Of a stretch of 64,000 nt of DNA, positions 17,622 to 44,995 are shown piece by piece. Location of the stretch: positions 91,302-155,301 of IMG/VR virus record IMGVR_UViG_3300029928_000002; one strand, given 5' to 3'. This DNA is from a virus (lineage: Duplodnaviria; Caudoviricetes). The first letter of the stretch is position 1; each line of letters opens with the position of its first letter. Below the pieces are notes generated by a model, which was given only the letters and a program-made list of their open reading frames with translations, was not told where the DNA came from and ran no database searches. A program made the position numbers and the translations under genes.

Positions 17622-18215
17622 TTAATTATATTCTATAAAATCAATTAATAACACTTTGTTATTAGAAGATAAATCATCTATATGAGATTGTAAAAACTTA
17701 CGATTATAATGTTTAGCATAAAACTTAGTACCTAATAAATAAAGATACCAAGGAGCCGAAACACTTGCATGATGTTCTATAACTTCTGTTATGGTATTAG
17801 AATATTTTTTTATATCCCAATCCCAATAACATATAGCACAATCTATATTTAGATGATTCTCATCTTTTAATTTTGTTATAAAATCTGTAAATTTCTTAGT
17901 ATACTCTTTCGTATTATCTACTTTATACCTCTCATCAAATATAAATCTATAATAAACATCTTTTTTCTTAAAGAGTTTAAACAGATCCGTACAGTCATAG
18001 AGATACCCATAATCTATTCTATTATGACATAAATGCCATTGATTATCTATTAATCTTAGTCTTATATCAAAATATCTAACTCCCAAAGAATATTGTTCTA
18101 ATAAAGTTAGTTTTTGACAATCTGACCAGATTTTAGTATACTTACGCAATCCTTTATTTTTAATTGGTAAGTAACTTATACTATTATGACTTCCTAACAT
18201 AATTAATGAATCCAA
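17622..18215 (-). CDS. PI-PLC X-domain phosphodiesterase
   Basis: GSHNS...CQ..TLLEQYSLGVRYFDIRL...LCH signature. Confidence 0.8.
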   Translation of the reverse strand: MDSLIMLGSHNSISYLPIKNKGLRKYTKIWSDCQKLTLLEQYSLGVRYFDIRLRLIDNQWHLCHNRIDYGYLYDCTDLFKLFKKKDVYYRFIFDERYKVDNTKEYTKKFTDFITKLKDENHLNIDCAICYWDWDIKKYSNTITEVIEHHASVSAPWYLYLLGTKFYAKHYNRKFLQSHIDDLSSNNKVLLIDFIEYN

Positions 18216-20452
18216 TATGTCGGTAAATTCCCTTCTTTATCCAGAGACAAATCTCCAGGAAGAGGTAATTTATCACAAAAAGGTTTAGCACCCTCTTTCA
18301 TACATTTTAATAATACCTTGGCGACTTTATCTGCTATATTATTAGGAGCTTCTATGTTCCATTCGTCATGAGCAGGTATGCAGAACTTTACTTTATGTAG
18401 CAAATCGTTCTTAACTACCCAGTTAAATAGGAACAAGGAAGCTAATTTAAAGCAACAGGCACCTCTATTTTGTATTCTATAATTTATAGACTGCTTTTCT
18501 AGAGTCTTTTTTCGCTTTTTATAATATTTAAAATCATCCATTAATACAGGATCTTCTCTAAACATTTTCCAGAAGTTATGGTCTTGCATTTCTTTCTGAA
18601 TTTTGGATAATCTATCCCAATCATAAGCAAATGCTTTAGCTCCAGTAATATTATTCATTTGAATATAGCCTCTTTCCATAACATCCTTTTTACAGTACCT
18701 CTGATATGTTTCCATACCAGGAAAACCTTTCATATAATTATCATATACCTTCTTGGCTTCTTCCAAAGGGATTCCTTTGTTATTAGCTATGGTGTTTTCA
18801 TCACCACCGTAGTTGATAGCAAACTCTACTCCCTTAGCATCTTGTCTGAGGTCATGATATTTCTTCTTGATCTCTTCAATCTTAGTATCTCTAGGTATTA
18901 AATGTGGATATGACATATATGCTACTAGAGAATGTATGTCTTTGCATCCCTCAGTGAATATTTTTATCATAGCATCATCGCCTGTTACAGACGCAATAAT
19001 ACGTGATTCTTGACCCTCATAGTCCACCGAGAGCCACTTATTACCTTCTTCACTAATAAAGCATGCTCTAGTCTCTGCATCCTTCGGTAATTGCTGTAGA
19101 TTCACTCCTCCTTTAGTTCCACCACAGGACATTCTGAATGTATCGGCCCCTATAGGATTAAAGTCAGCATGAATCCTACCATCTTCCTTAGTTACATTAC
19201 TAATAAAGTTTTGCCCGAATGCTTCACATACTTTAGCTGCTTCTTTATAATTCACATATAATTCTGCAATAGAAGATATATTCTTTTGAGCTTCTATAAT
19301 CTTTTTATCTGCAGATTTCTTGTGCATCTTAGTCTTCTTATCAATAGTATCAAGATTAAATCCCAATAATTCAAATAAAGGAATTACTTGACTACTACTA
19401 GACCAGTTGATAACACATTTATCTCCAAATTCTAAAGCTACTGGATTGAATAAATCTTGTTGTATTGTATTTATATGTTGTACATAAGGATTGAATTTAT
19501 CTCTTAAGGTATATCCAAATGGAATTTTATAAACTCCATATGTCTTAAATCCATATTTATCATCAGGGACTTGTTCAATTTCTCCATCTTCGTATTTAAC
19601 CCCAAAGAGTCTTTCAACATCTACAAATTTTAAATCAGATGGAATATTTTGATCGTCTCTATGGATAAATTGTGTGTCAAGGAGGGCTTTATATTCTATT
19701 TTTCCCCTACTTCCATTATGCTCTTTATAATATTTTACTATCCAGTCATTTAGTGCTTTTAACCATTTATCTCTTCTGGCATTATCTTTAATCATTTTCT
19801 TTTTCCATCTATCAACATCTAGTTTTACACCATCCAGTTTTATTTTACCTACTACAATTGTAAACTTAGATTCAAAGTCAGCAGCTTTCTTAACATGATA
19901 TTTAATTAATTCTTTCTGCTGAGCTTTATAAATCGGAATGGAATATTTAACATCTGTTGCTGAATAAACTATAGTTCTTTCAGTTAAACCTTTAGTAATG
20001 ATTTCACCTCTAGCTGTTTTATCCATATCATAGTCACAATATTTCTTTGCACATGTTTTCAATGATACAGAATACATATCTCTAGGTTTACCATTATTAA
20101 GGACTCTTTCACCTATCAAAGTATCAAAATAGTTCTTCTGCACAATTCCTACTTGTAGTAGCCATTGACTATCAAAGCAATAATTATGCCACACATATAG
20201 TATATTAGGATTCTCTAACAGCTCCTTCAACATTATTAGAGGATAGCTTAGACAATCCCATACTATTTGATCTTGTTCATCTCCAAGCTGAATAGATAAT
20301 ATTTTCTTAGTAACAGGATTCAATCCTTGAGTTTCAGTATCTGCTCCTAATATTGTTTTCTTAGATAGTAAAGCTATAGCTTCTTCTGGAGGTATTACTG
20401 TATACTTATCAGATTTAAATAAAGTTTGCTCCCTACTTACTAAATAAATCAT
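18203..20452 (-). CDS. polA: DNA polymerase family A with 3'-5' exonuclease
   Basis: DTET, HNYCFD, DYEGQESRI, RQDAKGVEFAINYG, NYRIQ and HDE motifs. Confidence 0.95.
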   Translation of the reverse strand: MIYLVSREQTLFKSDKYTVIPPEEAIALLSKKTILGADTETQGLNPVTKKILSIQLGDEQDQIVWDCLSYPLIMLKELLENPNILYVWHNYCFDSQWLLQVGIVQKNYFDTLIGERVLNNGKPRDMYSVSLKTCAKKYCDYDMDKTARGEIITKGLTERTIVYSATDVKYSIPIYKAQQKELIKYHVKKAADFESKFTIVVGKIKLDGVKLDVDRWKKKMIKDNARRDKWLKALNDWIVKYYKEHNGSRGKIEYKALLDTQFIHRDDQNIPSDLKFVDVERLFGVKYEDGEIEQVPDDKYGFKTYGVYKIPFGYTLRDKFNPYVQHINTIQQDLFNPVALEFGDKCVINWSSSSQVIPLFELLGFNLDTIDKKTKMHKKSADKKIIEAQKNISSIAELYVNYKEAAKVCEAFGQNFISNVTKEDGRIHADFNPIGADTFRMSCGGTKGGVNLQQLPKDAETRACFISEEGNKWLSVDYEGQESRIIASVTGDDAMIKIFTEGCKDIHSLVAYMSYPHLIPRDTKIEEIKKKYHDLRQDAKGVEFAINYGGDENTIANNKGIPLEEAKKVYDNYMKGFPGMETYQRYCKKDVMERGYIQMNNITGAKAFAYDWDRLSKIQKEMQDHNFWKMFREDPVLMDDFKYYKKRKKTLEKQSINYRIQNRGACCFKLASLFLFNWVVKNDLLHKVKFCIPAHDEWNIEAPNNIADKVAKVLLKCMKEGAKPFCDKLPLPGDLSLDKEGNLPTYWIH

Positions 20453-21321
20453 AACAATTCTTTTAAAGTTTTTCTAAAATATTTCTTTAATTTTATAATA
20501 GCTCTAAGTTTGGTCTGCCTAATACATTCTGTAGACTTGTGATACTTTTCACAGAGATTTTTAAGATACTTAGATTCGTTATTTGGATCAGAAAATCCAT
20601 AATAATCTAATACTATATCTCTTTCTATCTTTGTGAAATATTTACTATTTAATATATTCAAAATAACTTCTCTTTTATTTTTATGTTCTGCAGAAGTATC
20701 TGTAGAATCTACATTATTATTTGGTATAGCTTCTATAATAAGAGGAGCATCCGAATCTGAAGAGGTTGAAGTATCTAAAGATGTATAATTAATATCAGAA
20801 TTTAAAGCATTTTCTAATTGAGGTAATGTACATCTACATAGTTTAGCAAGCTCTTCATCTGTTGGTGCTTCTCCATGTTTTTGAATATACTCTTGTCTAT
20901 ATTTATTAATTCTATATTGTATTTCAACAGGGCCTTGTGCAATTCTAATAGTTCTAGATTTATTAGTAAGAGCTTTGGTAATACATTGACGCATCCACCA
21001 CAAAGCATATGTAATAAATCTATAACCTAGATCGACATTCCACCTTTCTGCTGCTCTACAAATTCCTGCATTTGCTTCAGCTATTAAATCTTCCAAAGGT
21101 AATCCTCTACCTTGATAATGTTTTGCAACAGTTACCGCAAATCTTAAATTGGAATTTATAAGTTTTCGTCGGGCTTTCATATTACCACGCTTACTTAATT
21201 GTCCAATATATCTTTCTTCATCTTTCGTAAGTAATTTATATCTAGATATGTCATGTAAATAATCTTTCAAAGAACGAGAATATATATTAGTAATACTTGG
21301 TGCTGTGGTAATTTGTCTCAC
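20449..21321 (-). CDS. Sigma-70 family sigma factor
   Basis: YLHDI..LLT..EE, LINSNLRFA..VAK.Y, DLI.E.N.G, RFITYALWWMRQ; region 4 ECIRQ. Confidence 0.9.
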   Translation of the reverse strand: MRQITTAPSITNIYSRSLKDYLHDISRYKLLTKDEERYIGQLSKRGNMKARRKLINSNLRFAVTVAKHYQGRGLPLEDLIAEANAGICRAAERWNVDLGYRFITYALWWMRQCITKALTNKSRTIRIAQGPVEIQYRINKYRQEYIQKHGEAPTDEELAKLCRCTLPQLENALNSDINYTSLDTSTSSDSDAPLIIEAIPNNNVDSTDTSAEHKNKREVILNILNSKYFTKIERDIVLDYYGFSDPNNESKYLKNLCEKYHKSTECIRQTKLRAIIKLKKYFRKTLKELL

Positions 21322-21680
21322 TATTTAGAACTGTTTAAAATGTTATTTATATAAGTAATCAACCATCTATCTCCTAGAAAGGAATTCCTTAACCATGTAT
21401 GGCCATAACTATCTGTGTAAGATGATATAATCTTATATTTAGACCAGAGACTCTTATATGCATCTAATATTTCTTTAGCAGTAAATTCTGGATGTTTAGC
21501 TATATTCTCAGCTAGATTTCTTAAATAAACCTTAGTAAGCTCTATTTTAGAAATATGCTTATTGCTGAATATAACTTTATCATCTAATTTTATCACTACA
21601 GTAAAATATCCTGGCTGTTTAACAGTTTTACTTATAGCAGTAACGGCTTTCTCAGCCTTACTTATCCTACCTTTCCTCAT
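21321..21680 (-). CDS. Hypothetical basic protein
   Basis: ORF in operon; ends TAG-TGA. Confidence 0.65.
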   Translation of the reverse strand: MRKGRISKAEKAVTAISKTVKQPGYFTVVIKLDDKVIFSNKHISKIELTKVYLRNLAENIAKHPEFTAKEILDAYKSLWSKYKIISSYTDSYGHTWLRNSFLGDRWLITYINNILNSSK

Positions 21681-21975
21681 ACAATACTGTTTGAGAATAC
21701 TCCATCAATAAATTACCTACACTTTGTGCAAATGATTCATCAGATCCATTATTATAATAATAGTTTATAGCATGAGCTAATTCATGGAAATAAGTATTTA
21801 ACATAGTTTGTTCAGATACTTCATCTCCATAAATAGTTCTAGCTATTTTAATTATGTTAGTATTAGAATCAAATTGCCCATAATCATAAGAATCATCTTC
21901 GTTGTGAATATCATCTACAATCTCAACTGTAAATGTTATACCAGCAAATTTAAACTGTTTAGGAATTTTAATCAT
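21667..21975 (-). CDS. Small HExxH metallopeptidase-like protein
   Basis: YGQF...TYFHELAHA...DE. Confidence 0.75.
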   Translation of the reverse strand: MIKIPKQFKFAGITFTVEIVDDIHNEDDSYDYGQFDSNTNIIKIARTIYGDEVSEQTMLNTYFHELAHAINYYYNNGSDESFAQSVGNLLMEYSQTVLYEER

Positions 21976-23218
21976 GTAAATCAGCTTCTGTTAAATCAAA
22001 TCTAAATGCAATAAATGCAGGCTGTTCAGGAATACCATAAGGAGAAATATTAAAATATTTACAATCTCCTAATTTTCCTTTATAGAATTTGTCAAAGTTG
22101 TCAGTATATTCTACTTTTTGATTATGGTCTCCTAATGGTTTGGCTTTAAAAGTTTTACCTTCTCTAGTTTCCATTATAAATACCATATCATCATAAGGAC
22201 GTAAGCCTTGCTCAATACCAATACATTTAAAAGTATTCTCTTTATACTTCTTAATTTTAATCATATTGTTATTTCGCTTGCCTGGCCCATATTTAGCAGT
22301 ATCCAATCTGACAACTAGTCCTTCCCAACCTTCTTCTACATATTGATTATGTAGTTTCATCATATTGTCCCATCCAGTTACTGCAACTTGTGGAACAAAT
22401 TGAATCTTTAACTCACCTTTTTTCCAGATTCTATAAGGATTAAAGTCTAGATTCAACAATCTTTTAATCCTATACATTTTCTTTAATCTATCATGAAAAG
22501 GTAAATCAATATCTACAATATCATACATATAGAACTCTAACTTACCTAAATCCTTGGCAGTAGAATTATTACGACATATTCCACTAATAGTAGATAGAGG
22601 TAAACCATGTTTATAAGCTTCTCCATCTAGTATTAAATCTGGATTTGCTTTAAACAACTTTTTCAACAATGGATGACTAATTATATGATAGAGAGGAAAA
22701 TCTAAAGATATAGCTGTTCTACTCTTAGCATGAATCTCTTTACCATCATAGTAGATTAATGTTCTAATTCCATCAATCTTCCTACTGGCCCAATAATGTA
22801 AATCAAATGTAGCTTTATTAGTTACATTCTTAGCCATTTTACATAACATTGGTTTTAGTAACCCATCACTGAAAGTCTTATAGAATCCGATAATTGCATC
22901 TAATTCTTCTACAGTATAATCATCAGCAGATTTGTCTAATTTTTTATATCCTTTATCAATATATTCTTTACATAGAGATTTAACTCTTTGCTGAACTCTA
23001 ATATGTGCATCTCTCTGGACTTTTCTATCATCTATATCTATTGAAGGCTGTTCTGTATGCTTACAATGATATTTATAAGAGAATCTTCTTATTTTGTAAT
23101 AATTAGGTTCAATCTTTTCATAATAAATATCAATACCTCGTATACCTCCAACACTATCTCTAATAGCAAAATAGAACTTAGTTATCTCTTGACTATCAAA
23201 TAATCCCGGTTGATCCAT
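21968..23218 (-). CDS. ATP-dependent DNA ligase
   Basis: KIDGIR, LDGE, YDI, EGLVVR and KIK motifs. Confidence 0.9.
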   Translation of the reverse strand: MDQPGLFDSQEITKFYFAIRDSVGGIRGIDIYYEKIEPNYYKIRRFSYKYHCKHTEQPSIDIDDRKVQRDAHIRVQQRVKSLCKEYIDKGYKKLDKSADDYTVEELDAIIGFYKTFSDGLLKPMLCKMAKNVTNKATFDLHYWASRKIDGIRTLIYYDGKEIHAKSRTAISLDFPLYHIISHPLLKKLFKANPDLILDGEAYKHGLPLSTISGICRNNSTAKDLGKLEFYMYDIVDIDLPFHDRLKKMYRIKRLLNLDFNPYRIWKKGELKIQFVPQVAVTGWDNMMKLHNQYVEEGWEGLVVRLDTAKYGPGKRNNNMIKIKKYKENTFKCIGIEQGLRPYDDMVFIMETREGKTFKAKPLGDHNQKVEYTDNFDKFYKGKLGDCKYFNISPYGIPEQPAFIAFRFDLTEADLHD

Positions 23219-23508
23219 TAAGCATTTGTATACACTAATTTACCTTTATTATCTGGAATCTCTAGAGTATATTCCCCATTATTATCTTTAGGTTCTAATG
23301 GTTCTATATCATCAACATATTCTTCTGTACCTACTAATTTTATTGTATCAGAATCTGGTATAATATCTACATTATTTTCTTCGGTAGCGGCTATAAGTTT
23401 ATTTACAGCCTCATCATAATTATCAGCTTCTACAGAATATGTTTCATTAACCCACATTCTACATAGAACATTTCTATCAATATAATACTTCATAATTATA
23501 TTAGACAA
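23218..23508 (-). CDS. Hypothetical protein
   Basis: ORF in operon. Confidence 0.65.
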   Translation of the reverse strand: MSNIIMKYYIDRNVLCRMWVNETYSVEADNYDEAVNKLIAATEENNVDIIPDSDTIKLVGTEEYVDDIEPLEPKDNNGEYTLEIPDNKGKLVYTNA

Positions 23509-23510
23509 TA

Positions 23511-23546
23511 ATAGCCTACATAGAAAATAATATCTATATAGGCTAT
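23511..23546. terminator. Intergenic hairpin/terminator
   Basis: atagccta...taggctat stem. Confidence 0.5.
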
Positions 23547-23553
23547 CTTATTA

Positions 23554-23820
23554 TTAGAAATTAATGTTAGAAAGAGTATAATTCAATGTTTTAATAGTTT
23601 CATTTAATTTGTCAATTGTTTTTTGCAGCTCTTTAAGTTTGGCAACATCTGCTGAATCATCCTCATCAGATTTATCTGAATCTTCATCTGAATCTGCTAC
23701 GTAATGCAATGAAGAATACATATTATCATCTTCTAGAGCTTTTGCAAATGCTTTATAAAACTCATCTTCCGATTTAAATTTCTTACCATTAATCATTCCT
23801 TCAAATACTTCTTTTTTCAT
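23554..23820 (-). CDS. Acidic coiled-coil hypothetical protein
   Basis: ORF with D/E-rich linker. Confidence 0.65.
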   Translation of the reverse strand: MKKEVFEGMINGKKFKSEDEFYKAFAKALEDDNMYSSLHYVADSDEDSDKSDEDDSADVAKLKELQKTIDKLNETIKTLNYTLSNINF

Positions 23821-23844
23821 TATTTTAAAAATTAAAACTATTAG

Positions 23845-24230
23845 AGATACCCTCTTTATGCCGATGTTATAAAATTAATTCCTAGAGCCTGTGGAAGGCT
23901 TGGAAGTTGGGAATAACACCCAGTAAAACCACTTCGTGCTACTACACTACTATTTTCAAAATCATAGTATGGCTAACTATGAAATTTAAGTGGTCGGCTC
24001 ATGTACAGCCACGGATTGCCATGTATCGAATCTAGCCTAACTTAAAAAAGTCATCGGCACCCGTTGTTAGAGGGTAGGACAGAGCGGGATTAAAGCTATC
24101 TGTACACGAAACAGGAGATAAACTCCACTGTTTGAGGTTTTTATTATGTGGTCAAACGAAACTGCTAAACACCACTAAGATTTTTTTGATTCAAAACAAA
24201 CATATCGGCTACCTAAAATAGGTAACTGTT
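23845..24230. ncRNA. Candidate large structured ncRNA
   Basis: About 400 nt with no ORF in the track, GC-elevated, long-range stems and about 9 local hairpins. Confidence 0.6.
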
Positions 24231-24244
24231 AATTATCTATAAAA

Positions 24245-24466
24245 TTAATTCTGCTTGCCTTTAAGAATTTCATCAATCTTACTTTCAATCTTCTTAACAG
24301 CGTCTGCAATAGAAGCAGAATCTTTATCCAGCTTACCGAAGACTTCTTCGAGCTTAGATTTCAAATCTACAAACTTATTACCATTCTTCTTGTAAATAAA
24401 GTAAAGAACAGCGAGTACAATAACAATAGTAATTAAATTACCGGCAATTACACTTAATACTACCAT
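24245..24466 (-). CDS. Single-TM coiled-coil protein
   Basis: N-terminal hydrophobic helix, charged tail. Confidence 0.7.
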   Translation of the reverse strand: MVVLSVIAGNLITIVIVLAVLYFIYKKNGNKFVDLKSKLEEVFGKLDKDSASIADAVKKIESKIDEILKGKQN

Positions 24467-24488
24467 AATTTTAAATTATTAAAAAGAA

Positions 24489-24779
24489 TTATTTTCTATG
24501 ATCTTTAACTACCTCCCATAAATCTTCTACAGAAGATATATCAATATCTTTATCATCTATTACTACATAATCAGCATCTTCATACATATAACTATATATT
24601 ATATCTCTACCAAAATCATCAAAAGTATAGTCAAGGAATGTATCAAATAGAATATTTGCATAATCTGCCCAATCACATTCCAGTAGGTCTGCTTTAAAAG
24701 CCTCTGATACTCTATCAATATCATCACTCCACTTTAGATGATTCGTAATTAGTTTAATAAATTGTTCTTTTGTAATCAT
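24489..24779 (-). CDS. Hypothetical protein
   Basis: ORF in operon. Confidence 0.7.
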   Translation of the reverse strand: MITKEQFIKLITNHLKWSDDIDRVSEAFKADLLECDWADYANILFDTFLDYTFDDFGRDIIYSYMYEDADYVVIDDKDIDISSVEDLWEVVKDHRK

Positions 24780-24782
24780 AGT

Positions 24783-25145
24783 TCAATAACTTATTTCAAA
24801 ACATAAAGATTCATCGTCATTTAATTTATCAAACTCTGGAAGTAATTCATCTTCCACATAACTTCTAACTCTCCTTATATCATCAAAATAATATTCGTCA
24901 TAAGCTGTACTTCCAAAGAAAAATCCATCCATTGTAGGTAGAAGTTCAGGAGCTTTAGAATGATCTTTTAAAACTTCATTACATCTAGACAGTAATTCTT
25001 CTACATCTTTTTTCTCAATTTCAAAAGGATTTGGATGTGTAATATCCATACCTTTATCATTAAAGAATCTTACTAGAAAATTTACTTTTCTAAAATATCC
25101 TATATCTTTAGTCCCTTTCTTTGTAAAATATATATCCAGTCCCAT
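24783..25145 (-). CDS. Hypothetical phage protein
   Basis: MGLDIY..YFRKVN..LLPT.DGFFFG pattern. Confidence 0.75.
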   Translation of the reverse strand: MGLDIYFTKKGTKDIGYFRKVNFLVRFFNDKGMDITHPNPFEIEKKDVEELLSRCNEVLKDHSKAPELLPTMDGFFFGSTAYDEYYFDDIRRVRSYVEDELLPEFDKLNDDESLCFEISY

Positions 25146-25147
25146 AA

Positions 25148-25675
25148 TTATTTAGATCCAGTTGAATTAAAACCTCCATTACCTCTATCAGTATTTCCTA
25201 AATCATCTTTAGAAAATACTTTAGACCATCTAAGACGATAGACAGGTTCGAGAATAGCTTGACATACTCGTTCCCCATCTTCAATATAAATATCTTGTAA
25301 ACCAAGGTTGATAACAGGAATCATCCACTCTCCGCGATAATCACTATCAATAGTTGAAGGAGTGTTAGCTAGTTGCAAACCTTTCTTTATAGCCATACCT
25401 GAACGTGGTCTAAAAGATATTTGATAACCTTCAGGAATAGCAGTAAATATACCACTAGGGAGCAAAGCTCTACCCATAGGAGCTATACGTACCATTGGAA
25501 CAGAGTGTCCTTCACCAGACCATATCACTTCAGCATCTCCAAAAGCTTTAATTGTATTAGTAGGAGTTACTCTACTCAAATCAATTCTAATATCGAGACC
25601 TGCCGATCCAGCAGTCTCGTATTTTGGAAGATCATTATTACTTACATTATACACTTTAACATTTACCTCGTTCAT
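25148..25675 (-). CDS. dut: dUTPase
   Basis: AGLD, RSG, TIDSDYRGE, ERVCQ and RGNGGFNSTG motifs. Confidence 0.95.
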   Translation of the reverse strand: MNEVNVKVYNVSNNDLPKYETAGSAGLDIRIDLSRVTPTNTIKAFGDAEVIWSGEGHSVPMVRIAPMGRALLPSGIFTAIPEGYQISFRPRSGMAIKKGLQLANTPSTIDSDYRGEWMIPVINLGLQDIYIEDGERVCQAILEPVYRLRWSKVFSKDDLGNTDRGNGGFNSTGSK

Positions 25676-25857
25676 AATCGTAAATTAATAATTACTTATT
25701 ATAGCATCTATAAATTCATATATATTATCTAGAGTTATATATTCAAATTGACATAGATTTTCAATCTCAATCTCAGAAATAGAATCTGTTTTATTTATCA
25801 CATATCCAAATTTTCCAATTCTAAAATTAATATAATCTATATTATCTAGAATTAACT

Positions 25858-26547
25858 TTATTTTTTGTTCTTTACCCATGATTGAAAGTCTATAAATTTG
25901 TTATTTTCTAATATATATGAGTGAGTATAATCTAAACAAGAAAATATTTCAGAGTTTTCGGTATCAGATTCTACAATATTTTCAGATATATTCCATTTAA
26001 ATACTTGGTGATATGGACTAAATCTAGGATATTCTATAAACTTAATAGGATTACTATAAAGTGGACTAATATTACTAATATTCTTAGATACTTCTTGAAT
26101 CTTGATAAATCTATCTAAATTTAAAGAAGGTATTATAAGTCCGGGATATTGTAAATTACAGATATTTGAATTTATAGAGAACCATGTATAGTTTATTCCT
26201 CCGTAAGTAAATAGATAAGTTTCATCACCCTGAGTTAACCATGTATTTAAAACTAGTGGCAATGATTGCAATTTTTGTTTAGCAATAGTTAGGGAAGAAT
26301 TTCGACTATTTAAAATGTTAGTTTCCCAATTACCTAAGATAAGTTCAACTTTTCCAGAATCTTTATCTAATTCATCTGTAGTGAAAGATTTTAAAAGTAA
26401 ACTTAATTTCTTTAATGATTTTTTAAAGTTACTTTTATCTACACTGATATAATCTCCCAATACTATTATATGGTCAAAGTTGTCTTTATATTTAACAGCT
26501 TCTTCCCAAGGTGACAGAAAACAACTAGGTATTACTAGAATCTTCAT
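25858..26547 (-). CDS. Degenerate metallophosphoesterase-like protein
   Basis: LGDY and LGNWE retained, metal-binding His residues lost. Confidence 0.55.
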   Translation of the reverse strand: MKILVIPSCFLSPWEEAVKYKDNFDHIIVLGDYISVDKSNFKKSLKKLSLLLKSFTTDELDKDSGKVELILGNWETNILNSRNSSLTIAKQKLQSLPLVLNTWLTQGDETYLFTYGGINYTWFSINSNICNLQYPGLIIPSLNLDRFIKIQEVSKNISNISPLYSNPIKFIEYPRFSPYHQVFKWNISENIVESDTENSEIFSCLDYTHSYILENNKFIDFQSWVKNKK

Positions 26548-26812
26548 TTTGTAAATAATTAATTAATTGAACTATGGCATTATCCTCCCAATCATTCTCA
26601 CTATAAAATGCTTTCTTAGGAGTATCTCCATCAAATATTATACAGAATGGATCTACCTTAGCCCCCCAATACTCTTTCAGTTTCCAACCCTCCTTTTTAC
26701 CATGTCTAGTAGTTGTATCTATATATTCTACTAGAAAAGGCTGCTTAAAGATAGTGTTTTTAAACTCCAAAGCCTGTTGAGGATCATTATATACAATATA
26801 TACGCTAATCAT
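26525..26812 (-). CDS. Thioredoxin-fold-like hypothetical protein
   Basis: WGAKVDPF cis-Pro-like motif; no CxxC. Confidence 0.45.
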   Translation of the reverse strand: MISVYIVYNDPQQALEFKNTIFKQPFLVEYIDTTTRHGKKEGWKLKEYWGAKVDPFCIIFDGDTPKKAFYSENDWEDNAIVQLINYLQNEDSSNT

Positions 26813-28161
26813 TTATTAAATATATTTACATCACTACGAGTTCTACTAAAAGCTACATATTCAAGCTGTCTGCGTACTGCAGATTCACAACATTTCTTAA
26901 GATTACTTAGATCTATATATACTTTATTATATGACGAACCTTGTGCTCTATGAATTGTACAACTATATCCTAAATCAAATGTCTTTTTAAAGACTACTCT
27001 ATCCTCATATATTAAATTATCATAAGAACAGAAAGATTTAGTTAATGCCATATAAGATTGCCACTTATTAGTCTTCAAAGCTCTTAATCTAAGATCTTCT
27101 ATTTTTTCAGGTAAGTCTGGATATTTACTTACATCTGTTAATAGAAATATTAGTCCATAAGATTTATTGTAATTATCGTACAATGTTAGCCAATATCCAT
27201 CAACATCACCATAACAAGGTAATCTCTTATATCCTGCACAGACATTGGTAATAAAATAATCCATTCCATTGTAATAGTCGAAATAACTTATAGTTTCTTC
27301 ACCATTACTAGTTAATTGTACCCCACTTCTACCATTAGCATAAGCAGTTAATATATCACCTACATGGAATAAATCTTTATCTTTCCATATAAATCTCTGA
27401 ATAGCCTTATTATAATTTCTTACAGCTTTATTAGTATAGACTAACATTTTAGTGTATAAAATATCTTTATTAGAAATAGCTTGCTTATAATCAGCTGCAC
27501 ACTTTCTAACAAATTCTTTTATATCTGTATATACATTTAAATCTCCATCAGAAGAATGTAAAGGTTTAAAATTACGAATTTCTTCAGTTCGTAATTTAGT
27601 TAATATTGGTAATATACAATTCTCATCTGACTGCCTATATATTTTAGTCAGAGTATAAGTTTTATCACAATTAGTATATACTTTAGAGAATCTGACTGTA
27701 TCTACTGGAAATAATTGAGCTTTATCACTTACAAATATTATCTTACATTTATAATCTTTACACTTCTCTATTAGTAAATCAAATAAATCATCATTAATCA
27801 TAGAGGCTTCATCACATATTACTACTCCTTTATAAGGAATCTGAAGATTATCTTTAGTAGATAAAAACTTTAAATCTAATAGATTAAATTTCTCTATATA
27901 AAGATTTGGAGTTAATGCTAATAAACTATGAATTGTAATAGCAGACCTACCACAATAATTCATCATTACTATAGAAGCCTTATGTGTAGGAGCACATAAT
28001 ACTATAGACATATTTAACTCATCTATTTTAGGTAATAGTTGAGATATGGTATAACTTTTACCTGTTCCAGCAGCCCCTACTAAACTAAAACATACGTCTG
28101 AGGACTTTAGAAATTCTAGAATTAAATCTATTGCTTTCTGTTGATCAGTTCCTAACTGCAT
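26809..28161 (-). CDS. SF1 helicase (Dda/RecD-like)
   Basis: GAAGTGKS, DEASM, QL.PV, YRQ, TIHRAQGS and YVAFSR motifs. Confidence 0.92.
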   Translation of the reverse strand: MQLGTDQQKAIDLILEFLKSSDVCFSLVGAAGTGKSYTISQLLPKIDELNMSIVLCAPTHKASIVMMNYCGRSAITIHSLLALTPNLYIEKFNLLDLKFLSTKDNLQIPYKGVVICDEASMINDDLFDLLIEKCKDYKCKIIFVSDKAQLFPVDTVRFSKVYTNCDKTYTLTKIYRQSDENCILPILTKLRTEEIRNFKPLHSSDGDLNVYTDIKEFVRKCAADYKQAISNKDILYTKMLVYTNKAVRNYNKAIQRFIWKDKDLFHVGDILTAYANGRSGVQLTSNGEETISYFDYYNGMDYFITNVCAGYKRLPCYGDVDGYWLTLYDNYNKSYGLIFLLTDVSKYPDLPEKIEDLRLRALKTNKWQSYMALTKSFCSYDNLIYEDRVVFKKTFDLGYSCTIHRAQGSSYNKVYIDLSNLKKCCESAVRRQLEYVAFSRTRSDVNIFNK

Positions 28162-43386: not shown

Positions 43387-44995
43387 TTAAAATCTAAAGG
43401 TATATCTATTTATATTTCCGGAATATACCTTTGGTTGTTCTCCATTAAATATTGCATTTAATTCAGATTCTTTAATTACTGTATATTTAGAATCTTTATG
43501 TGACTTCAAAAACCATTCTGTTTCCACAGTGTTATTAAGCACCAAGTTGAATATCAGAGCCTTCTTGTCTGGTGCCCATCTGATAACTCTACCTCTTCTT
43601 TGGGTAGCTTTAATCGATGAACTATCTAGTCCTAAGATGATTGCTACTGATAATCCTTTCACATCCAAACCTTCATTGGCCTTGGCGCAAGTGTGGAGAG
43701 TACCTGTCGATAGTTTATTGAAGTCTTCTATAAGGATTCTACCTTTCTTCTTAGATGTTTTACCGGTATATACATTCTGACCATGTTCTAAGGCTTCCGC
43801 CATTTTTACATTATTAGAGAATGTAATTACCTTTCTGTCCGAATAATGTTCCAGTATTCTTCTAGCTACCTCTATCTTTTTTGGATGATTATTTATGAAT
43901 GCTTTACGCTGTTGAATACTTCTAATAAATTGCATTGAATAATAAGTAATCTTCTTTAACATCTCTTTTCTGTCAGATTCTTTACTAGTCATTTGCTTTG
44001 CTAAAGCTGCTCTGGTTTTAAATCCGTTAGCTCCAATACAACTCATAGCTAGATTAAAATCATAACTGAAAAATCCAAATGCTTCAGAAAACTGCCTATT
44101 ATAAACTTTATAAGTATCCAAATCATCTACATCTAGTAGTACTAGATATTCATCATATTCAGATACCCAATTGTTTAATAGACATTCTTCAACTCCTACT
44201 GTATCACAAATAGGACAATATTTACGTATTATTTCATCCTTACCATCCAATCTTTCAAGAGTAGCAGTCAATCCTAATATGTATTTATACTTTACACAGG
44301 TAAATATCTGTCTAAAGGTATCAGAAGCATATCTATGACACTCATCCAATACCAATAGATCACATTTCCATCGATCTTTGACGAAAGAGTTTATGATATG
44401 AACTTCACAGTTAAATACAATGTCATTAGATACAAGTAACTCTTCCCACTGACTCTTTAAAGTCTCTGTTGGAACTATTACAATGCATCTAAGGTTAGGA
44501 TATTTATGCTTGAGTAGCTTGATAGTCATTATAGCTATCCTTGTTTTCGATTATGTTATCAGCAGGCTTTTTATCCTACTTTCTTATTATTACTAATAAG
44601 TCCCGCATAGATTTTTACCCTTAAAGGGTATCGAACACTCGTGGAGAAATTATATTCTATAGAATAACTTAATTTTATTAATTAAGTTACTTTACAGGTT
44701 CATTCTCTATGCTGTACAGTACGGAAGACTTTTTAGGTTCTTCCGTTACCTCGGTATTACCCTATGTAGGGTGTTCACCGATTTTGCTCGATAATAACTC
44801 CGAAGATTTCTCAATCAGAGCGGCACCATAATTAACTGGTATATATACATTAGCTACATTTTATTAGCCCATACCAGCTTTTACTGTACCAAACCCAGTA
44901 GCTGCCTCAATACTGGCCTTACCTCCAGACTTAATCCAAGATTTTATACAGTATTTCTGTCTAGTAGTTCGGTCTGTTTGGAATAAACTATTCAT
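43387..44995 (-). CDS. SF2 (DExH) helicase, 422 aa; exons 44995-44888 and 44547-43387
   Basis: Splicing restores Walker A AATGFG|KT; DECH, GLTAT, EGLD and QRRGR motifs in exon 2. Confidence 0.9.
44548..44887 (-). mobile_element. Group I intron, 340 nt, no ORF
   Basis: Exon ends in U, intron ends in G; P1 UUGGU/GCUAA; core-like AAAAUCGGUGAA...AAUACCGAG; many stems; removal restores frame and motif. Confidence 0.88.

Follow-up and report, generated by a model that had tools for sequence, protein, structure and literature searches.

Few gut viruses are more abundant than the crAss-like phages. To our knowledge almost nothing is known of their RNA biology, the main exception being the abundant non-coding RNAs (ncRNAs) of the cultured crAss-like phage phi14:2. 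These are long ncRNAs that appear early from the g004-g006 intergenic regions (bioRxiv 10.1101/2020.03.07.982082). Large ornate RNAs of bacteria and phages are represented by GOLLD (RF01998), ROOL (RF03087) and OLE (RF01071) (PMC12286853). An ncRNA associated with the UG27 reverse transcriptase (RT) of gut phages, some of them Crassvirales, lies between the RT and partner genes and forms three long stem-loops (PMC9226505), and candidate structured RNAs with covariation-supported motifs have been collected from intergenic regions of uncultured phages in IMG/VR (PMC10690425). The subject of the present analysis is an object of this last kind, a predicted structured RNA of ~335 nucleotides (nt) on the minus strand, at positions 23845–24181, of a 64,000-nt stretch (the window) of the IMG/VR record IMGVR_UViG_3300029928_000002, a 155-kb sequence of a crAss-like phage that is 86% complete.

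We read this element as an autonomous, structured ncRNA gene whose product would act in trans in the phage replication module, and assign this reading a probability of roughly 0.6; our best guess is that the RNA is a ribonucleoprotein (RNP) component or ribozyme-like. Its closest analogues in kind are the orphan large phage RNAs GOLLD and ROOL (PMC12286853) and the phi14:2 long ncRNAs. It resembles GOLLD, ROOL and OLE, which are large, intricately folded products of independent genes often borne by phages or prophages, and it resembles the phi14:2 RNAs in occupying a long gene-free stretch of a crAss-like genome, on the same strand as the genes. It differs from the former, which we take to be roughly 580–800 nt long, in its size of ~335 nt, in matching none of them in Rfam at an expectation value (E) ≤10, in not lying next to tRNA genes and in its occurrence in four lineages. 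The phi14:2 RNAs differ in coming from an early region near the genome start rather than from the replication module. The UG27 ncRNA is likewise a structured RNA predicted in uncultured gut phages, but consists of its three stem-loops, the present fold being pseudoknotted. The main text of the IMG/VR survey mentions no crAss or Bacteroid motif (PMC10690425), and no published description of this RNA was found.

Covariation and the predicted fold

The RNA was compared across four independent lineages, all of them uncultured phages of the same crAss-like clade: the window type (with the near-identical copies L002 and L012), L089, L058 and L097. The PolA proteins of the latter three are 67–78% identical to that of the window. 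In a hand-made table of 11 helices and 60 base pairs in five sequences (the window, L012, L089, L058 and L097), 278 of 284 cells (98%) held standard pairs, compensatory double changes were found in 27 of the 60 pairs, and 28 pairs were invariant. When the 3′ partners were slid by 1–3 positions, 34–49% of the cells paired and 2–7 pairs were double-changed. A covariance model, R1, was built over RNA index 147–317 (index 1 being window position 24244) from the window, L012, L089 and L058 alone, and detected L097 at E 5e-11. In the covariation alignment, which is itself fitted to the model, 98.7% of the cells paired and 17 of 30 pairs were changed on both sides, compared with 5.2±1.8 in shuffles (0 of 500 reached 17) and 0–3 in slides. 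Covariation across collected homologues, a check proposed in an earlier reading of the locus from its letters (the sequence-only reading), is present, in excess of the slid controls. As judged from these alignments, the locus carries what generally marks a structured ncRNA, a secondary structure conserved on one strand with compensatory changes.

The RNA is predicted to fold into a 5′ arm of two hairpins (H1 and H2) and, after it, a compact core that has P1 and P2 as its closing helices. The core would contain a three-way P5 domain, a P6 hairpin with a conserved loop, two variable hairpins and a double pseudoknot, the helices running from 5′ to 3′ in the order P3-PK-P1a-PK′-P2a-hpA-P3′-P6-P5 domain-P7-P8-P2b-P1b. 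All features below lie on the minus strand. The stems listed in the sequence-only reading were located in the sequence where it had placed them, and compensatory changes were present in taccctct/agagggta (P1), accactt/aagtggt (P5), tcatagt/actatga (P5.1), gatt/aatc (P6) and gtggt/accac (H1).

The double pseudoknot had been missed. The acaga/tctgt hairpin proposed in its place keeps just 2 of 5 pairs in L058, and the region instead joins two covarying long-range helices, P3 and PK. P3 (5′ strand 24093–24098, 3′ strand 24033–24038; index 147–152/207–212) changes from UAGCUU/AGGCUA to UGGUGU/ACACCA in L058 and to UCUGUU/AACAGA in L097. Three or four distinct sequences occur among the lineages, all of them complementary, and double changes affect 4/6 pairs in the hand table and 5/6 in the model-fitted alignment. 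PK (CCCG/CGGG; 5′ strand 24085–24088, 3′ strand 24060–24063; index 157–160/182–185) becomes CCUG/CAGG in L089, a C-G to U-A replacement, and CUCG/CGGG in L097, with a U·G pair; the 5′ strand of P1 lies within it. The two long-range helices nest, each of them crosses P1, and P3 in addition crosses P2, so that together they would form a double pseudoknot.

P1, the outer closing helix (5′ strand 24069–24076, 3′ strand 23848–23855; index 169–176/390–397), has 4 of 8 pairs changed on both sides (GACCGCCU/AGGCGGUG in L058; GUUCU/AGAAC in L097). The inner closing helix P2 (5′ strand 24052–24059, 3′ strand 23859–23866, CAUCGGCA; index 186–193/379–386), proposed earlier as tgccgatg/catcggca, is upheld as a real helix but is invariant in the window, L012, L089 and L058, and hence carries no covariation information; its 3′ strand is kept in 4/4 lineages. 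Next to P2 a small hairpin, hpA (24040–24051; index 194–197/202–205), shows a C-G to G-C change in L058 and is lacking in L097.

Hairpin P6 (24014–24032; index 213–216/228–231) has a conserved 11-nt loop (CG...CAUGG). Its stem changes from AUU/AAU to CCG/CGG in L097, giving three compensatory pairs, and both the length of the loop and its CAUGG are kept in 4/4 lineages. The CAUG within this loop is self-complementary, and the CAUGG could pair with a downstream YAUG or make a self-complementary contact. A kissing contact between AUGGC of the P6 loop and GCCAU of the P5.1 loop fits the window and L089, is reduced to 4 bp in L058 and is impossible in L097.

The P5 domain (23928–23994) is a three-way structure in which a 7-bp helix, P5 (index 251–257/311–317), encloses P5.1 (index 264–269/277–282), P5.2 (index 298–301/306–309) and a conserved purine-rich junction (UUGAAAAUAGUAG). 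One pair of P5 is A-U, U-A or C-G depending on the lineage, 5 of the 6 pairs of P5.1 are compensatory, and G-C, A-U and G·U are all seen in P5.2. At the places of the two variable hairpins P7 and P8 (23879–23922) every lineage has a hairpin, but neither the sequence nor the length is related from one lineage to the next. The tggg/ccca stem accordingly survives as a hairpin position (P7) and not as a sequence, agcct/aggct is a lineage-specific extension of P8, and ggct/agcc, which has mismatches in L089 and L058 and no covariation, was dropped.

In the 5′ arm, H1 (24148–24175; index 70–74/93–97) has a 5-bp stem and an 18-nt loop. Its stem changes from GUGGU/ACCAC to GACCA/UGGUC in L097, with 4 of 5 pairs changed on both sides. 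H2 (24114–24126; index 119–122/128–131) changes from GGAG/CUCC to GGGA/UCCC in L058 and L097, with two compensatory pairs. The longer H2 stem proposed at first, aaacag.gag/ctc.ctgttt, finds support in its covarying gag/ctc core and not beyond. The arm as a whole (H1, H2) is invariant in three lineages.

The conserved core (index 64–400) is delimited by the points at which homology with L058, L089 and L097 begins and ends. An extent of 23845–24230 had been proposed, of which 23845–24181 is conserved and the remainder is not. The taccta/taggta hairpin (24208–24226) that had been included in the element lies outside the homology and is not part of the conserved RNA; it was picked out by the terminator scan and resembles a terminator for the 73-aa gene upstream.

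Strand, selection and relation to known families

The strand, left as ambiguous in the sequence-only reading, was decided by three observations. The gene strand has 278 canonical cells and its complement 268; each of the 10 cells that differ is a G·U pair that becomes C·A on the complement, where no cell improves. A strain single-nucleotide polymorphism (SNP) at 23967 (C-to-U) leaves a G·U pair in place of G-C in a minus-strand RNA but would disrupt the pair in a plus-strand one. Only the minus strand folds better than chance: its z-score was -2.83, a single one of 100 shuffles doing as well, and that of the plus strand was -0.98. The RNA is therefore placed on the gene (minus) strand.

The same evidence bears on whether the element might work as DNA, as an origin, cruciform or protein-binding site, or as the template of a primer RNA. 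Its place among replication genes in 4/4 lineages would suit such a role. However, the opposite strand would have C·A in place of the 10 G·U pairs, duplex DNA has no need of the covariation seen in the long-range and pseudoknot helices, the region is GC-rich rather than AT-rich (41% GC over 23875–24174 and ~28% in the flanks), and the homologues are free of iterated repeats. A DNA-level role is unlikely because of the strand asymmetry and the covarying pseudoknots, and very little weight is given to it here.

No reading frame was conserved under code 11, with TAG read as sense or with TGA read as sense, the longest frames lying on strands and in frames that differ by lineage. Three differences separate the near-identical copies L002 and L012 from the window: an unpaired base, a C-to-U change and a 1-nt insertion. 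A plus-strand stop-to-stop frame at 23829–24242 (137 codons with TAG as Gln) is not conserved and is broken by the 1-nt indel of L012; it was set aside as a chance frame. The RNA core is 0.88 identical in L089 and 0.78 in L058, compared with 0.68 and 0.49 at four-fold degenerate sites of polA, while against L097 the sequence is saturated (0.49) and the helices persist. On these comparisons the structure, and in the closer lineages also the sequence, is under purifying selection. That the region has no function, being a spacer or a decayed gene with stems that arose by chance, is barely credible and is contradicted by the covariation: the plus strand folds no better than shuffles and the distribution is narrow, as a spacer would have it, but conservation exceeds that of neutral sites, 27 compensatory pairs stand against 2–7 in the controls, the model detects L097 independently, and no frame is conserved.

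Comparison with catalogued RNAs gave no relative. At gathering score, Rfam 15 returned for the window only four tRNAs elsewhere, and at E≤10 the window, L058 and L097 returned only unrelated noise of small nucleolar RNA type, different in each, with no small-ribozyme or intron family among the matches. The Infernal check against Rfam that the sequence-only reading had proposed thus matched no family. ARAGORN found no transfer-messenger RNA (tmRNA), reporting five tRNAs in the whole genome and four in the window (at 56–58 kb, 32 kb from the element), and the window had no Rfam match to RNase P RNA at E≤10, in agreement with the earlier statement that no signature of either was seen. The suggestion of an undescribed phage ncRNA is also borne out, covariation being present and an Rfam 15 match lacking, and the RNA is a previously uncatalogued structured family of narrow distribution.

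Particular classes were considered and rejected. Group I introns (RF00028) are alike in their 300–400 nt, their pseudoknotted core and their frequency in large phages, but the element is not inside a gene, shows no exon continuity, has no Rfam match and no homing endonuclease, and differs in helix order. Group I strands run P3-P4-P5-P6-P7-P3′-P8-P7′, with P7 closing directly after P8. An ncRNA associated with a UG27, retron or abortive-infection (Abi) RT was discarded, the 155-kb record (86% complete) having no match to PF00078 (RVT_1). Homology to the phi14:2 long ncRNA regions was likewise rejected, R1 run over NC_021806 1–9000 with filters off giving 11 bits at best. Elsewhere in the window, 44450–44980 had no Intron_gpI match in Rfam at E≤10, and the best Rfam match there, at 44594–44746 on the minus strand, was a weak RAGATH-22 (23.4 bits, E 0.026).

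Genomic setting and distribution of the element

The element lies in a gap free of open reading frames (ORFs) at 23821–24244, between the minus-strand ORFs 23554–23820 (88 aa) and 24245–24466 (73 aa), both of which are complete; all neighbouring genes are on the minus strand. The gap belongs to a replication module, with an ATP-dependent ligase (21968–23218), a dUTPase (25148–25675), a Dda-like helicase (26809–28161) and PolA (18203–20452) nearby, and the genes around it are all small ORFs or replication genes. Homology begins ~50–60 nt past the stop codon of the upstream gene, and the start codon of the ORF downstream of the core lies ~20–60 nt after P1.

L058 was recovered from IMG/VR with a 20-mer from a common block, and L089 (PolA 78% identical) and L097 (67%) were found through contigs encoding PolA homologues. 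Public DNA contigs from four runs, all of one study, matched the stretch and supplied the strain SNPs and the L058-type homologue; a second genome in the same samples matches 23977–24154 at ~82% and diverges beyond 24181. Window-type and L058-type phages co-occur in samples (runs X1 and X3), and the assemblies branch at a 57-mer (24125–24181, containing H1) that is identical in the two. The homologous copies (L089:8106-8476, L058:10126-10467 and L097:3838-4170) all lie on the gene strand, each in its own gap of 386–424 nt, at gene junctions that differ across lineages.

The window copy lies between the 73-aa ORF and a small ORF of the NGKKF type, two genes upstream of the ligase. The NGKKF type is a family of small acidic proteins with an N-terminal F-x-G-x-(I/V)-N-G-K-K-F that is widespread in this phage clade and has no Pfam or PHROG match (members at window 23554–23820, L097:4219-4437, L075:6255-6497 and L106:4541-4723). 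In L089 the copy lies exactly between the ligase and a small HExxH ORF. In L011, whose ligase is 84% identical, these two genes overlap (ATGATTAA), which represents an empty junction for the L089 site; L011 has other small ORFs and is without the element. In L058 the copy is 450 nt upstream of PolA, and in L097 it separates a 112-aa ORF from an NGKKF-type ORF, the same two genes being 53 nt apart, without the element, in L106. All four lineages carry the copy amid genes for replication proteins (ligase, PolA, Dda-like helicase and dUTPase), and the flanking proteins are unrelated between lineages except for the NGKKF-type ORF downstream in the window and L097. The downstream ORFs thus belong to three unrelated families across the four lineages, and NGKKF-type genes are present without the RNA in L093, L095, L098 and L106.

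The PolA tree unites the window with L089 and L058 in a single clade; the sister of L097 is a larger clade, which includes lineages for which no copy was found within ±10 kb. Among relatives reached through the ligase (53 loci, 39–84% identical) and through PolA (L090–L099 and L106–L111), the fetched flanks were copy-free outside L097 (nhmmer --max, model R1). Five whole genomes of more distant relatives contained no copy, blastn of the element (window, L097 and L058) against 50,697 GenBank phage records and megablast of window 20000–28000 gave no match, a 16-mer scan of IMG/VR returned 15 further loci, all chance matches inside unrelated genes, and a pattern of three parts, run against GTDB genomes and IMG/VR, gave chance matches only. 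IMG/VR contains just two of the lineages. From its sequence context the element is a self-contained movable cassette, found at different junctions in crAss-like replication modules.

The earlier statement that this is not an intron in a coding sequence agrees with these junctions, the ORFs on either side being intact and, across lineages, unrelated. The element might still be a ribozyme, or what is left of a mobile one (intron-like, self-cleaving or self-processing), that has a catalytic pseudoknotted core and was inserted between genes. The compact double-pseudoknotted fold with its invariant unpaired nucleotides, together with insertion/absence polymorphism at three different gene junctions, speaks for such an origin, and a missing Rfam match carries little weight, but the element lies outside genes with complete and unrelated flanking ORFs, its helix order is unlike the group I P3-P8/P7 scheme, neither small-ribozyme nor intron families were matched at E≤10, and no target-site duplication or homing endonuclease was found at the insertion junctions. 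We regard this explanation as quite improbable.

Predicted role in the replication module

The transcript would come from the gene strand, either from its own promoter of Bacteroidota type just upstream or by read-through. A TATGTTTG box at 24197–24204, upstream of the core, is a possible promoter -7 element, and a TAnnTTTG-like octamer is present 8–31 nt upstream of H1 in 4/4 lineages, whose flanks are otherwise unrelated. The octamer resembles what we take to be the Bacteroidota -7 promoter element. The RNA is predicted to act in trans as a folded RNA, not as the regulator of one neighbouring gene. Its invariant 5′ arm and loops would be the surfaces by which a protein or nucleic-acid partner recognises it, and during expression of the replication module it may function as an RNP component, as a decoy or as a catalytic RNA. 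An autonomous, trans-acting RNA is favoured because of the cassette behaviour, the unrelated downstream genes, the upstream octamer, and a size and complexity beyond those of known leaders.

A cis-acting leader or intercistronic element in a polycistronic mRNA, controlling the translation, stability or processing of the next ORF, would explain why the element is always on the gene strand directly before a small ORF that starts ~20–60 nt downstream, why the downstream ORFs of the window and L097 are both of the NGKKF type, and why no terminator follows the core. It accounts poorly for the other copies, which precede a small HExxH protein gene in L089 and an unrelated gene in L058, and for the NGKKF-type genes without the RNA in four other lineages. 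A length of 335 nt with two pseudoknots is far above known leader size, and the promoter-like box just upstream suggests a separate transcription unit. The marks of a riboswitch or cis-regulatory leader are lacking, the downstream families being inconsistent and no terminator or sequestering hairpin being common to the lineages. Control in cis is therefore held to be a minority possibility, and the autonomous, trans-acting ncRNA gene is retained as the preferred reading.

Several points weigh against this preference. Four independent lineages are too few for statistics of the R-scape type, and the L097 coordinates of H1, H2 and P1 were picked by hand. The P2 5′ strand is deleted in L097, and the closing architecture is not uniform; the P2 3′ strand of that one sequence could pair locally with ACCGUUG instead, possibly a natural rewiring of P2. 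Recent recombination, and not constraint, could explain why 57 nt are identical in the window and L058. The terminator scan found no intrinsic terminator after the core, which, like the short distance to the next start codon, is an argument for a role in cis. Relatives with PolA 60–73% identical have no copy within ±10 kb, and the RNA is therefore dispensable or replaceable.

RNAs of comparable size and complexity have usually proved to be ribozymes, RNP cores or, lately, self-assembling RNAs. A bolder version of the autonomous reading, in which the element is the first member of a new class of phage RNAs, compact, double-pseudoknotted and active in their own right (a new ribozyme or a self-assembling RNA), carried as a mobile cassette with possible P2 rewiring in L097 and used in genome replication or against host defence, is speculative and rather doubtful. 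The RNA is nevertheless of a middle size that is experimentally approachable, has a well-supported model with two pseudoknots and no Rfam relative, and resides in a portable cassette of the replication module. The structure model and the four natural variants suffice to design probing, cleavage, oligomerisation and pull-down experiments, within the limits of a small family, uncultured phages and an RNA predicted from its DNA.

Two further observations concern possible targets and decoding. A scan of the phage's own genome for antisense targets of the 5′ arm gave a single 17/18 match to the H1-H2 linker, at genome positions 180–197, in AT-rich sequence and with a borderline E of 0.016–0.16. Outside the window, the left end of the contig has three copies of AAATTTTGCGG in ~150 nt (G000:C1:170-320); one copy, followed by TTTTTATTATG, constitutes the 17/18 linker match, which may be due to chance. 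A link to stop-codon recoding was rejected: the window sequence CUCUAAC mimics an anticodon loop but lies inside P1 and is a SNP peculiar to the strain, and a tRNA with anticodon CUA is already encoded in the genome. This tRNA (anticodon CTA, G000:C1:7564-7636, outside the window) is labelled Pyl by ARAGORN and is an amber suppressor.

Relatives that lack the RNA have other gene-free gaps of 0.65–1.1 kb near PolA (L090:7668-8664, L096:4327-4981, L106:3162-3889 and L099:3644-4782), which gave no Rfam match at gathering score and no match to this RNA. PolA is split in L106 (10001–12583) and L108 (714–3288), where a gap and then a LAGLIDADG-type ORF come after an N-terminal part of 474 aa, and two PolA ORFs are found at L109:6121-8723. 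The split PolA of these three lineages suggests introns or inteins in the polymerase gene.
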